Assembly (NCBI GenBank): GCA_039586795.1
Contig: JBDHJS010000059.1
Coordinates: 1-15,490, forward strand
Length of the DNA stretch: 15,490 bases
Direction: 5' to 3'
Source: Gemmatimonadota bacterium
GTDB lineage: Bacteria > Gemmatimonadota > Gemmatimonadetes > Palauibacterales > KS3-K002
The position numbers were made by a program. This document shows, piece by piece, positions 3,001 to 9,000 of this stretch; positions within the stretch are counted from its first letter, which is position 1, and each line of letters opens with the position of its first letter.

Positions 3001-6000
3001 TCATGGCCACGACCGCGGATAGCGCGATGTTGATCTGACCCACCGTGAGGCCCCAGGCTCCAAACGCCAGGGCGGCGGGAGCGATGTTCGGGATCAGGCT
3101 CAACAGCCCGAACTTCAGGCTGCGAAACGCGAACACCAGCGTGATAGAAACCAACACCAGCGCCAGAAAGCTCGCCGTTAACATCCCTTCGATATTTCGC
3201 TTCGAAAGGTGGGCGAACATCACCGAGGGGCCGTTGGCCTTGGCGTGCATCTCAGGTGGCGCGTTCTCCACCAGCCACGCTTCGCCGGCGGCGGCCAGCG
3301 CCCGAATCTCTCTCGTCGAGATGTCGTCGAGTGTCACGACGAAACGTGTGCCAGACTTGTCGACGTTGATCTGATTGTTCAGGTCGAGCCCGTAGGGCAG
3401 CGACATCTCGAACAACAACAGGTACTGCGCCGCCAGGTCTCGCGTCTCCGGCAAGCGATAGGCCGCCGGGTCGTCACCGTGCATGTTCTTGTTCAGCCGC
3501 TTGAACACGTCGGTCAGCGACAGAACGTGCCGCACGTGAGTTTGATCCGAGTACCAATCGGCAAACTCGCCAACTGTCCTCAGGTACTCCGGTTCGCTGA
3601 TCCCGCCGCTCTCCGACGCCCGGAGGTCGAACTCCAGCTGGTATAGACCAGTCAGTCTCTGCGTGGCAAAATCTGTGTGCTGGCGAAACACCACCGAGTT
3701 GTCGAAGTAGTCCACGAAGTCGTCGTTCAGCTCGTTCGTCGGCACCACCGCCGCCAGCGCCAGGGTCGCCAGCGCCGAAGCGACGAGCAGCGGCCGCCGG
3801 TGTCGCGTGACGAAACTGGCGAAGCGATCCGTCCACGCCGTGCTCAGGCTGCGTGTCGCTCGTGCCTTCAGCGGTAACAGCGAGACCAGGGCAGGGAGGG
3901 TGAGCGTCGAGAAGAAGAACGCCGCGATCACGCCCGTAGCCGTCATGTTCCCCAGGTCCCGGAACGGCGGCGAGTCGCTCATGTTCATGCTGAGGAATCC
4001 GATCGCCGTGGTCAGGCTGGTCAGGAACACGGGCAACAGGTTAACACGCAGGCTTTCCACCAACGCGTCCCGCTTGCCGAGGCCCCCGTTCATGCTGTGG
4101 AGTGTCGTCGTGAGAATGTGGATGCTGTCGGCGACGGCCAGCGTCATGATCAATACCGGCGCCGTCGACGACGGCGGCGTGATCGGGATACCCCACCAGC
4201 CGGCCAGGCCCATCGCCGTCGCGGTCGAGACGCCGATAACAAACACCGTCGAAAACGTCGCCGAGCCGGATCGCAGAAGCAGGAAGATCAGGATGATCAT
4301 GCCGAGGTACATGAGCGGCATCAGCTTCGCCATGTCCCTCCGCGCCATCTCGTCGAAGGCATTGTTCAGCATCGCGATCCCGGTGAGCCGGATATCGACG
4401 GCGGGATGCTCCGCCTCGATGCGCTCGGCCAGCTCACGGGCCGCCGCGACGACGGGTGGCAGGGCTTCCGTCGACTCGTCGGGGAGCTGTAGAGTCACGT
4501 TCACACCGGCCACATCACCGCGCTCGGAAACGATGCGGTTCTTGACCAGCGGCTCCGCCAGCGCCACCTGGCGCACCCTTTCCCGCGCCGCGCGGTCCAG
4601 GGCGGCCGCGTCTTCGACCAGGTCGTCGACCACCAGGTCGTCGCCATCCGCTTCGCTGTGTTGGAAGTTCGTTATCCCGTCGACGCGGATGGCGTACGGG
4701 ATCTGCCAGGCGCCGTTCGTCAGGTCTTCCAGGGCCACTAGAGCATCGTGGCTGAAAGCGTCTCCCGATTTGGGCTCGACGACGAACAGGATGTTGTCGT
4801 TCTTGGTGTAGATCTTCTGTAGGGCCTCGAAGGCCAGTAGGTCGGGGTTGTCCTCGCTGAAGAAGACCCTGTAATCGCTGGCGATTCGTAGCTTGCTGGC
4901 ACCGGCACCGGCCGCGAGGGCGACGAGTGCGGAGAGAGCCAGGATTGGCCAGCGCCAGCGCAGGGTCGATCGGGCCCAGCGGGTCGCGAATCCGTCGGTC
5001 AGCTTCTTCGAATCTGCAGTGTCCATGTTCCGGTCTCCGATGGTTGGGGCGTTTGGACCGACTAGTCGGTCTAGTTGGACGTCAAAAAAAAGAACCCTCT
5101 CGTTCAGGGTGTCACCGATTCTTGAGCCAACATCTCTACATAGCGCCTGAAGTTCTCTAATGCCGCCGGCACCCGGGCCCAATCGTCGTGCGCCTTCGCC
5201 AGCACGATCGACCCCTCCAGAGCCGACAGAAAGAATTCCGCTAACTCGAGCGCGCCCGGCGAATCATCCCGATCGTCTTCCACCACGACCGCGAACATCT
5301 CAGCCAGTCGTCCGGCGAGCTTCTCGAAGATCTGGGAGATGCGCTTGCGCATCGTTTCGTTCGTATCCGCCAGCTCCACCGCCATGTTGCCCAGAAGACA
5401 CCCATTTCCCCAGACGTCCTCGGCAATCGCCTGCGCGTGCTCGAGGAACCCGAACAGCCGTTCCCGAGGGTCCTCCAGGCTGACATAACTGCCCGCCTGC
5501 AGTGCTTGGAAACCCTTCTGGCTGTAGGCGTCCAGGGCTGCCAGTCCCAGCTCTTCCTTGCTGCTGAAGAAGTGGTAGAAGCTGCCCTTGCTCACGTCCG
5601 CTTCGGCGCAGATCTCGTCGACCGTCGTAGCCGGATACCCCTTCGCCAACATGAGGCTCAGGGCGGCTTCAATCACTCTGTCTCGGGTGCTCGCTTTAGC
5701 CATATCTCTTCGTCCTTTCAACTGCTCACAGAATATACCAACTAGTCGGTATAGTCAATACTTTGTTGTAACTTCCCTTCCCGTATATACTTACGGGTAA
5801 GGGGCCACGCCGACGCCGCCCGTCGGGTCGGGAAGCCCCAGCTTGGGATAGCCGATTGTCGGCGCCTTCCTCGGACCCGGCGGCTCGGGATTGCCAACCG
5901 GAGCCCTTCTGCCAACTTTCGCGTACGGAATAACGCTAGAATATGACTTGCTGCCGGGCAAAGACCGCCCCGGTGCGGGATCTAGATATCAGTATATGAA

Positions 6001-9000
6001 GAGAGACTACTACGAAATCCTGGGCGTCCAGCGGAGCGCCGACGGCGACACCATCAAAAAGGCCTATCGCCAGGCGGCGCTGAAGTACCATCCCGACCGC
6101 AACCCCGACGACGCCGAGGCCGAGGCCAAGTTCAAGGAAGCCACGGAGGCTTACGAGGTCCTCCGGGATCAGGAGCTCCGGGGCCTGTACGACCGCTACG
6201 GCCATGACGGGGTGAAGGCCGGCGTCCGTGGCGGCGGCGGAGGGTTCGGCGGCTTCAGCACCTTCGACGAGGCGCTGAACATCTTCATGCGCGAGTTCGG
6301 AGGTTTCGGGTTCGATGACCTGTTCGGCGGCGGCGCCCGGCGGCACGGCGCCCAGATTCGAGGCTCCGACCTCAAGATCCGCGTCAAGCTGGCCCTCGAG
6401 GACGTCGTGACCGGCGTCAAGAAGACCATCAAGATGCCGATTCTCGATACCTGCCCGGACTGCGAAGGCTCCGGCGCCCGCGGCGGCGAACAGTCGACGG
6501 CCTGCTTGCAGTGCGGCGGCAGCGGCGAAATCCAGCAGGTGCAGCGCTCTCTGTTTGGCCAGTTCGTACGCGTCGCGCCATGCTCCAACTGCGGCGGTGA
6601 AGGCCGGGTGATCAAGAACCCGTGCTCCACCTGCCAGGGCGAAGGCCGGCTGCGGCAGCAGAAGTCGCTGGACATCGAGATTCCCCCCGGCGTGGCCACC
6701 GACGATTACCTGACGCTTCGCGGCCAGGGCAACATGGGCCCCCGCGGCGGTCCGCCCGGCGACCTGTTGGCGGTCATCGAAGTCGAGCCCGAGAGCCCGA
6801 TACGCGCTTCACGCGCCGCGGCGCTGATCTCATACACGACCTGCCCATCACGTTTAGCCAGGCCGCCATCGGCTCGACGCTGGAAGTTCCCACGGTGACC
6901 GACGAGGTGAAGGTGAAGGTTCCGTCTGGCGTCCAGACCGGCCACGTCATCCAGCTGCGCGGAAAGGGTCTGCCGCATCTGCGGCGCGGTGGAACCGGCG
7001 ACCTCTACGTTCGCGTCGTCGTCGTCACGCCCCGCAAGCTGAGCGATGAGCAGCGCAAGTTGTTCGAGCAGCTGTCCGAGATCGAAGCGCCGGCGGAAGC
7101 GGGCGAAGACGGCGTCGGGTTCTGGCAGATGATCAAAGAAGCGTTGTTTGATTGATTCGTAGTTCGAGAATAGGAATCGAGTATGAGTGAAGATTGCCTT
7201 TTCTGTAAGATCGCGAGCGGTGAAATCCCCGCCGACACCATCGCCGAGGCCGACGATTGGATCGCGTTTCGCGACATCAATCCCCAGGCGCCGACCCACG
7301 TGCTCATCATCCCGCGCCAGCATATCCCAACCCTCAACGATGTGGGGCGCGAACAAGCGGGAATTCTCGGACGGCTGTTTCTAGCCGCGAAAGAGATCGC
7401 GGAAGATGAGGGGATCGATGAGGACGGCTACCGGACGGTCCTGAACTGCAACGCCGACGCCGGTCAGTCGGTCTTCCACATTCACGTCCACCTGCTGGGT
7501 GGCCGGGCGATGGAGTGGCCGCCGGGCTGACATTGACGACTGCCACAGCAGTCGATTACTATGAAAGGCTACGGCACCACCGGACAATGAAACAGCAGCG
7601 AGCTTTGCGGCCCTGGAATGGCTGATTTGAAAGCGACCCTTCGGAATGATATGAACGAGGCGCGCCGCGGCGGCGAAAAGACCCGCGCGCGGCTTCTCGG
7701 CACCATCCTGTCGGACATCCGAAACAAGGAGATCGCGGTAGGTCACGAGCTCGAAGACCCCGAGGTCCTCGACGTGCTGGCCAAGGCCGTCAAGCTGCGT
7801 AACGAGGCCGCCGAATCGATGGCCGCCCGACCCGAGAAAGCCGAGGTCGAGCGTGCCGAGGCGGAGACGCTCAAGGCCTACATGCCGGAGCCGATCGGCG
7901 AAGATGAGATCCGGCAGGTCGTTCTCGAGGCCGTCGAGGGTGGGGCAGGCGACATCGGCGCGGTCATGAAGGCCGTGATGCCCAAGCTGAAAGGGCGGGC
8001 CGATGGAAAGGAGATCAACCGCATCGCCCGCGAGGCCATCGCAGGAGGTGGATCGGGTGACTGATCGGGTCTTGCTCCGAATCGGCAACGACCTGAACGT
8101 GTTTCGAACACGGGGGCGTCGGTGAGCACCACACCGGCGCCCCCGGTTCCTTTTTAGAGGCAGGGCTCGGACCGGCAATGAACGAACATGCCCTCTCCGC
8201 ACTCGAGTTCGACCGCGTGCTCGACATCGTCGCCGGCTTCGCCACCAGCGAGCCCGGCGCCGATGCTGTGCGCGCCCTCGAGCCGGATCCGGCCCAGACC
8301 GCCGTCGCCGACGCCCTCGACCGCGTCGACGAGATGGTGAGCTGGCTGATCCGCGACGAGGGGTGGGCGCCGCCGCTGATCCCCGACATCCGCTCTGGCC
8401 TCGATCTCCTCGCCCTCGAGGGGACCGTTTGGTCTGAGAGCCAGCTCGCTGGCGCGCTTCGCCTGCTGGGATCGGCCCGGACCGTGCGCAATAGCTTTGT
8501 GCCACAGGCGTCGGAGTTCCCGCGCCTCGGCTTCATCGCCGACGGCCTGCTCAAGGACGAAGCGCTGCGCAAGCAGATTGCCGATGCGATCGATGAAGAG
8601 AACGAGACGCTCAAAGACAGCGCTTCTGTCGAGCTCAAGCGTGTCCGCCGCTCGATCATCTCGGCGCGGACCGATCTGGTGCGTGCTCTGGAAGCCATCG
8701 TCGCCAAGCTGCCCGACCGCTTCGTCGTTCCCGATGCATCCGTAACCGTCCGTGCGGGGCGCTACTGCATCCCGATCCGTAGAGAAGGCCGTTCAGAGGT
8801 CGGCGGCATCGTGCACGACGAGTCCGCCAGCCGCGCCACGCTCTTCGTCGAGCCGCCCGCCGCCATCGAGCCGATGAACCGGCTCCGCGAGCTCCACATG
8901 TCGGAGCAGCGTGAAGTCGAACGCATTCTCCGCGAGCTAACCGACGAGCTGCGCCCGCGCGCCGCGGAGCTCGCCGACTCGTTCGATCGTCTGGTCACCG

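Follow-up and report, generated by a model that had tools for sequence, protein, structure and literature searches.

The tRNA dihydrouridine synthase (Dus) was once said to occur in all free-living organisms. One organism without a dus gene is the hyperthermophilic archaeon Pyrococcus furiosus. There the absence of dihydrouridine (D) has been measured (PMC9176250), whereas in the bacterial order Palauibacterales (Gemmatimonadota), which is nearly dus-free (1/125 genomes), it is predicted from the genes. Life without tRNA dihydrouridine is also possible in the laboratory, as E. coli triple and B. subtilis double dus mutants indicate (PMC13136901, PMC11162810), dus knockouts being viable according to PMC13136901; in contrast to these mutants, the loss in Palauibacterales is old and order-wide, has been joined by at least five other losses, and has been followed by a change in the tRNA genes. 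The closest described case of such an accumulation is the reductive loss in Mollicutes, for which Grosjean et al. (2014, PMC4014445) describe how RlmN, RsmE, and modifiers of ribosomal proteins have disappeared again and again in nested steps, whereas the core enzymes have stayed. The family KS3-K002 of Palauibacterales resembles this case, since RlmN, RsmE, and PrmA have been lost and core modifications retained. However, the member under study here (G000; 4.68 Mb, 62% GC, 97.8% complete), which itself retains the core RNA modifications, has undergone neither the strong genome reduction nor the shift to low GC of Mollicutes, and it lacks RsmG and TrmB, both mostly kept in Mollicutes (PMC4014445), as well as Dus, of which Mollicutes mostly keep dusB1 (PMC11162810). 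The genomes compared are GC-rich and range from 1.5 to 5.5 Mb, those of the family measuring 1.7-5.5 Mb as assembled.

One of the vacated loci is located in the window, i.e., the whole stretch of 15,490 nucleotides analysed from G000 (contig JBDHJS010000059.1), which carries the following features:

5996..7155, + strand: dnaJ, with NCBIfam DnaJ matches on both frames; marks the upstream side of the ancestral dnaJ-prmA-rsmE-hit locus
7156..7182, + strand: spacer of 27 bp, the site of prmA and rsmE in outgroups; free of remnants
7183..7530, + strand: hit (histidine-triad protein); downstream anchor
7618..8064, + strand: GatB/YqeY-type gene, which we take to be YqeY, with only weak GatE matches; conserved downstream neighbour
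8178..10511, + strand: mutS2; conserved downstream neighbour, used to retrieve outgroup loci
14800..15372, + strand: rsmD (16S m2G966 rRNA methyltransferase), TIGR00095 above cut-off; retained, internal positive control

Around 6785, a duplicated stretch of 8 bp divides the dnaJ gene of G000 between two frames, probably as an assembly error; the 8 bases are missing from the relative L048 and from one contig of sequencing run X3. As the preliminary description had noted, dnaJ adjoins hit, at a distance of 27 bp, and the same adjacency has been found in 4/4 family loci (recovered in a search of five genomes) and likewise in a named close relative, while a contig of run X1, which may be the source sample, spans the junction with zero differences. 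With regard to a possible host dependence of the kind seen in Mollicutes and endosymbionts, sequencing runs with at least 1/5 of the window's words (those with a share <0.2 were left out of the tally) are labelled as sediment, marine sediment, freshwater, or unlabelled metagenome, and the order also includes sponge-associated members. The further claims that RsmE had been lost specifically in this family, and that prmA and rsmE had been excised as a pair, have not been confirmed. RsmE is found in 0/31 family genomes, but only 21/49 non-family genomes possess it and 28/49 do not; PrmA is missing in 27/49 non-family genomes, including 19/22 of the sister family, and outgroup loci show both the dnaJ-prmA-hit and the dnaJ-rsmE-hit order, hit following rsmE in 20/21 rsmE loci. 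The patchy occurrence of RsmE outside the family is not a search miss, since a profile of 19 sequences from the class has returned the same 21 genomes as Pfam; the prmA-hit gaps of five rsmE-less loci contain no RsmE match. RsmE and PrmA have thus been lost repeatedly, and separately, across the class, so that a genome without them is not showing a trait of the family, nor does a single deletion have to lie behind it.

The absences themselves have proven real. Searches of G000 with E. coli queries and with profiles built from its own class have found no match for Dus, RlmN, RsmE, PrmA, RsmG, or TrmB while positive controls were found, which bears out the reported lack of Dus, RlmN, RsmE, RsmG, and TrmB, and every ancestral locus checked is closed up. 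From the gene counts, weak matches to Dus (E >1e-12, partial cover) and to TrmB (model positions 4-74 only) have been excluded. Dus occurs in 1/125 Palauibacterales (0/31 in family KS3-K002, 1/94 in the sister family) vs. 120/125 genomes of other orders. The sole copy groups with E. coli DusB, is located off the ancestral locus, and is foreign. The ancestral dus site is flanked by a PTS-IIA gene on one side and an AIRC-domain gene on the other, and the same closed locus is found in G000, G170, and the sister-family genome G080, in agreement with the proposed loss at the base of the order. Of two candidates for an independent loss (G111 and G006), G111 has turned out to be an assembly gap, the AIRC-domain anchor gene being cut by the contig end. 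The rRNA dihydrouridine synthase RdsA has been found in none of the 7 genomes tested from the order, which comprises about 130 or more; together with the lack of Dus, no known dihydrouridine synthase is left.

RlmN has been retained in 1/31 family genomes vs. 96/100 of the sister family and 5/5. The one exception, G176, is the earliest branch of the family and keeps RlmN in place; RlmN was lost once, within the family after G176 had branched off, rather than at its base. RsmG is found in 0/31 family genomes and 1/301 genomes phylum-wide, and the RsmG contig of G123 may stem from transfer or mis-binning; in G000, mnmG is followed by parA after a 228-bp gap with no RsmG between them, as described before. 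Full-length TrmB occurs in 5/80 genomes, all from one family. Both absences reach much further back and extend much more widely than had been stated, phylum-wide for RsmG and nearly class-wide for TrmB, and the proposed stepwise loss stands for Dus at the order base and for RlmN inside the family, but not for RsmE and PrmA as a family-level step.

The tRNA genes of the order differ from those of its relatives at the Dus target position 20. In pattern-matched D-arms, C20 accounts for 42% (218/518) in Palauibacterales and 14.5% (103/709) in eight Dus-bearing families, i.e., it is about three times as frequent in the Dus-less order, and 28/32 order genomes (with at least 10 D-arm matches each) exceed the highest other genome. 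Families f4 and f9, which carry a different Dus clade, have kept U20; G016 has Dus, which may stem from transfer or mis-binning, and yet shows C20 in 4/11. About half of the position-20 pyrimidines of the Dus-less order (53/103) are still U. The shift is not explained by GC content; at the locus, G000 and G170 have 61-64% GC, and genomes with Dus range from 61 to 72%. Some U20 changes are specific to sub-branches (Val-TAC only in family KS3-K002, Leu-GAG only in the sister family), which indicates several events; as the Dus-less genomes form one clade, the shift nevertheless represents one comparison and not 38.

This restriction to one clade is an argument for a lineage effect, by which the genes would truly be gone while the C20 shift would result from a long branch, an overall relaxation of selection on tRNAs, or a change in how synthetases recognise the variable pocket, and would be uninformative on dihydrouridine. 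Position 59, picked as a control, has even shifted more (U59 in 10/134 tRNAs of the Dus-less order vs. 27/123); E. coli PheRS uses U20 and U59 as determinants; the tRNA stems are slightly GC-richer in the order (0.81 vs. 0.76-0.80); and in a hold-out test U has also been lost more often at positions 16, 17, 20a, 32, and 47, so that most tested positions change more often and some general relaxation exists. Yet positions 16, 17, 32, and 60 have on balance not shifted, none of the eight Dus-bearing families, two of which carry a different Dus clade, leaves the range of 8-24% C20, and the fall of U59 is confined to tRNAs with U16 (19/70 to 4/73; other tRNAs 7/51 to 6/58), the link of position 59 to positions 20 and 16 having been found post hoc. 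We consider such a lineage effect unlikely, although it is the most serious of the alternatives.

Takeover by unrelated, unrecognised enzymes, so that some or all modifications would still be made, appears improbable. It would agree with the preservation of the readable targets: the 16S G527 loop is intact in G000 (from a 16S fragment; G000 contains no 23S), G46 is unchanged in 29/30 of its tRNAs, and U2449 and A2503 are intact in the 23S of the sister-family genome G004, the 23S genes of family KS3-K002 being fragments or missing in 3/3 tried. At position 37, a tRNA target of RlmN, genomes with and without RlmN do not differ. A precedent is given by C. sporogenes, which contains rRNA dihydrouridine without RdsA (PMC11317573), so that unknown synthases exist. 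Against a takeover, no Dus-, RdsA-, or RlmN/Cfr-like protein has been found in G000 even with loose filters, the vacated loci contain no insertion, and U20 has decayed; neither homology nor the vacated loci have yielded a candidate substitute, although no systematic search for new enzymes specific to the family was made. The earlier caveat that unrelated enzymes could substitute thus stands for the methylations, while for dihydrouridine the position-20 shift argues against it.

Slightly less probable still is that the losses were selected for, e.g., as low-level protection against ribosome-targeting antibiotics in sponge or sediment communities. According to reviews, loss of m7G527, m3U1498, or m2A2503 alters antibiotic susceptibility and loss of dusA is beneficial under sub-inhibitory tobramycin; however, depths of loss and habitats are very different (phylum, order, family, scattered genera), and PrmA, TrmB, RlmI, and RlmKL have been lost likewise. 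Artefacts of incomplete assemblies or insensitive searches, suggested by a completeness of 65-98% across the family and by the gap in G111, are very improbable and largely refuted by the Dus counts of 0/31 and 1/94, flanking genes joined on single contigs, the identical RsmE result with class-built profiles and Pfam, the recovery of AspS, used as presence check, in 29/30 of the same genomes, and controls matched in 10-13/14 for the main enzyme families.

We therefore favour, with fair but not high confidence, an erosion of dispensable fine-tuning enzymes without replacement, in which the tRNAs would record the released constraint as one evolutionary event. Gemmatimonadota would have discarded, in nested steps, enzymes that fine-tune RNA and the ribosome and are each dispensable on their own, with no general reduction of the genome, and family KS3-K002 would be the most depleted lineage sampled. 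By gene counts and synteny, a single deletion at the base of the order removed Dus from the gap between the PTS-IIA and AIRC-domain genes, and another, inside the family, removed RlmN. If the losses are unreplaced, tRNA and rRNA would be made without dihydrouridine, and m2A2503, m3U1498, m7G527, and m7G46 are probably missing as well. With Dus gone, U20 would no longer need to stay U, many tRNA genes could drift to C20, and the neighbouring U59 may have been released likewise. Most tentatively, slow nutrient-limited growth may have made the enzymes nearly neutral; B. subtilis dus mutants grow more slowly in the cold, so that neutrality is harder to assume for marine sediment.

It is a puzzle that D20, m7G527, and m2A2503 are so conserved although their knockouts show hardly any defect. 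Counter-examples with large genomes are now provided by the lack of Dus in an order, of RsmG in a phylum, and of RlmN in a family. Judged from gene sequences, the chances appear even that the order consists of large-genome environmental bacteria that translate with zero dihydrouridine and have rebuilt the tRNA variable pocket in response (U20 to C, U59 to purine), that family KS3-K002, also without m2A2503, m3U1498, m7G527, and m7G46, has a translation apparatus that, reduced parasites aside, is among the least modified, and that U20 owes its conservation mainly to its role as the Dus substrate. The Dus-less order represents a natural experiment on the purpose of dihydrouridine at tRNA position 20, and the position-20 shift would allow selection on a modification to be read from sequence alone, testable GTDB-wide and in E. 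coli dus mutants.

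The most interesting result, which goes beyond the preliminary description, is a corresponding change in the tRNA genes of the Dus-less order. That description had listed RNA-modifying enzymes missing from the genome carrying the window (G000; 4.68 Mb, 62% GC, 97.8% complete); the absences have proven real, while the staging of the losses needs correcting. Six-frame searches with loose filters and class-built profiles have found no Dus, RlmN or RsmE in G000 (best E 0.47, 0.57 and 0.06, respectively), nor PrmA, whose profile gave a top match of 50 bits as against >220 for true outgroup PrmA, and E. 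coli queries for RsmG and TrmB had no match. An 80-protein E. coli panel has been positive for RsmA/B/H/I, RlmB/D/H, RluB/D, TruA/B, TrmD/J, TilS, TadA, Tgt, QueA/G, ThiI, MiaA/B, RimO, MnmA/E/G, TsaB/C/D/E and PrmC, with RsmD encoded inside the window, and negative for RdsA, RlmKL, RlmI, RlmE, TrmL, TrmH and TruD. The E. coli HemW protein likewise had no match (best E 1.7).

All presence and absence counts mean "not found" among the genomes searched. Families are coded f1 (this family), f2 (sister family) and f3-f13 (others); the relatives that bear names belong to Gemmatimonadota. Full-length Dus occurs in 0/31 genomes of the family, 1/94 of the sister family and 120/125 of other orders (116/121 if four unpublished genomes are dropped; four weak-only matches and one blank are scored as misses). 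Outgroup dus adjoins a divergent PTS-IIA gene and an AIRC-domain gene, lying between both in five genomes (G001, G015, G023, G035, G103), and these neighbors are separated by 150-270 bp in G000, G170 and the sister-family genome G080. The sole Dus of the order (G016) clusters with E. coli DusB (100/99; the long branch calls for caution) and not with class Dus, and sits off the ancestral locus at a contig end; it was either transferred or misbinned. The proposed loss of Dus at the order base fits, as a single deletion. The Dus of families f4 and f9 (L154-L158, L196, L198) forms a clade of its own and lies away from the ancestral locus, and these families give weak PrmA matches only, which, with the TrmB of f4, suggests deep divergence or re-acquisition. 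A full-length, E. coli-like ThiI (265 bits, 97% cover; C19:21425-23426, L236), possibly acquired, is encoded after the tmRNA gene of G000, some 2.7 kb away from the emptied dus locus.

The other losses are nested differently than first described. RlmN, present in 96/100 sister-family genomes and 5/5 from other families, is nearly absent from the family (1/31), but its loss does not date to the family base: an AspS tree of 28 rows, from which fragments <380 aa were excluded, places the lone carrier, G176, as the earliest family branch (SH-aLRT 98, on a long branch), and G176 keeps the gene in its ancestral position, with a LytR_C gene on one side and PTS-IIA/aspS on the other. Since the LytR_C gene directly precedes PTS-IIA or aspS in the remaining family loci long enough to show the site, RlmN was lost just inside the family. 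RsmE is indeed absent from the family (0/31), but not specifically so (sister family 13/22, other orders 8/27, none in the f3, f4, f6 and f8 genomes searched). PrmA has been found in 0/31, 3/22 and 19/27 genomes, respectively. The junction in question comprises:

5996-7155, dnaJ, with a 27 bp spacer to hit
from 7183, hit, 27 bp past dnaJ

This abutment recurs in relative L048 and in the 4/4 family loci recovered (five genomes searched; G176 gave no hit match), and is bridged by a contig of run X1, possibly the source sample, over 7092-7299 with zero differences, and by one of run X3, from another study, over 7137-7287. A single deletion of the prmA-rsmE pair is not borne out: outgroups show dnaJ-prmA-rsmE-hit, dnaJ-rsmE-hit (G169), dnaJ-prmA-gap-hit (five loci) and dnaJ-hit, so that the two genes, either of which can be kept alone, depart separately. 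An 8-bp tandem duplication at 6780-6800 frameshifts the main dnaJ; missing from L048 and one X3 contig, it is probably an assembly error, and a 16S fragment on C99 of G000 holds a similar duplication of ~27 bp. Elsewhere in the window, a 1148-aa ORF (1736-5182) matches MMPL/RND transporters in its first 880 residues and has no NCBIfam matches in its C-terminal rest; it could be a fusion, or two genes read as one.

Full-length TrmB is confined to f4 (5/80 genomes; two copies in G014). RsmG has been found in 0/80 genomes of one survey and 1/301 across the phylum, and the mnmG to parA distance is 228 bp. The lone RsmG (G123:C32:2330-2791, L185), at a contig end, may reflect transfer or mis-binning. 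RdsA occurs in 2/11 genomes (one each in f5 and f7), and the same two account for the RlmKL-like and RlmI-like matches (2/5), distributions resting on few genomes.

At tRNA position 20, a D-loop site normally modified by Dus, U makes up 53/103 pyrimidines in four Dus-less genomes vs 76/98 in three Dus-bearing ones (each with 24-47 tRNAs parsed; the sets are incomplete, and that of G080 covers about half), with zero net shift at positions 16, 17, 32 and 60. A D-arm pattern applied to 80 genomes, 42 of them from eight other families, has given C20 in 106/225 family, 112/293 sister-family and 103/709 other D-arms (8-24% family by family); checked on G000, it reads only D-arms with a matching stem (17/46 tRNA calls), and its reversed background is 0-2 per genome. 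Among order genomes with at least 10 matches each, 28/32 top the highest C20 value of 41 others. Locus GC gives no explanation, sub-branches of the order changed different tRNAs, and f4 and f9, whose Dus is of another clade, retain U20. In G000, two tRNAs called Gly(GCC) (C22:108170-108254, C70:17908-17992) have a long variable arm and a Leu-type D-arm, possibly as unusual tRNAs or integration-site remnants; tRNA-Lys(TTT), Gln(CTG), Arg(CCG) and Ser(GGA/CGA) were not called in the G000 aragorn set, likely through assembly gaps, because relatives have them.

Several observations speak against tying C20 to the loss of Dus. The Dus-less genomes form a single clade, and a p-value is therefore invalid. 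About half of the U20s persist in them, and unknown D synthases exist, according to the Discussion of PMC11317573. In a hold-out test, whose cells are counted up to three times, U was lost more often in the order than in the comparison at most positions, though not at 60 (20: 60/149 vs 5/44; 59: 40/45 vs 3/12; 16: 46/108 vs 8/32; 47: 18/198 vs 1/58). U59 also fell, to 10/134 in Dus-less vs 27/123 in Dus-bearing tRNAs. This fall is limited to tRNAs with U16; U20 and U59 are both part of the variable pocket (PMC9976931) and D16 is able to point towards U59 (PMC2896525), an account built after the fall was seen. In tRNA-Phe, U59, one of the determinants for PheRS in E. coli (PMC9976931), is replaced in the Dus-less G000, G170, G004 and G080 and kept in 3/3 Dus-bearing genomes, with U20 kept.

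We have thus observed nested deletions with closed loci and a shift at position 20. If the lost enzymes have not been replaced, as we infer, these bacteria would be devoid of D and probably also of m2A2503, m3U1498, m7G527 and m7G46; the target bases are still present where readable. Slow growth may perhaps have relaxed selection on modifying enzymes; in E. coli, translational redundancy, modifying enzymes included, has nutrient-dependent value (PMC9981150). By title or abstract start, no description of these Gemmatimonadota losses or of a U20 shift after Dus loss was found, and distribution tables in supplements or subscription papers could already show absences; PMC10469786 uses the names Palauibacterales and KS3-K002, and the word "tRNA" was not found in it (further literature: PMC3674756, PMC9176250, PMC13136901, PMC11162810, PMC13602947, PMC4014445, PMC11317573). 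Mollicutes mostly keep RsmG and TrmB (PMC4014445) as well as dusB1 (PMC11162810), three enzymes that these large-genome environmental bacteria lack. Loss of modification enzymes as such is already known; new is such loss in large-genome environmental bacteria, with a visible answer in their tRNA genes.
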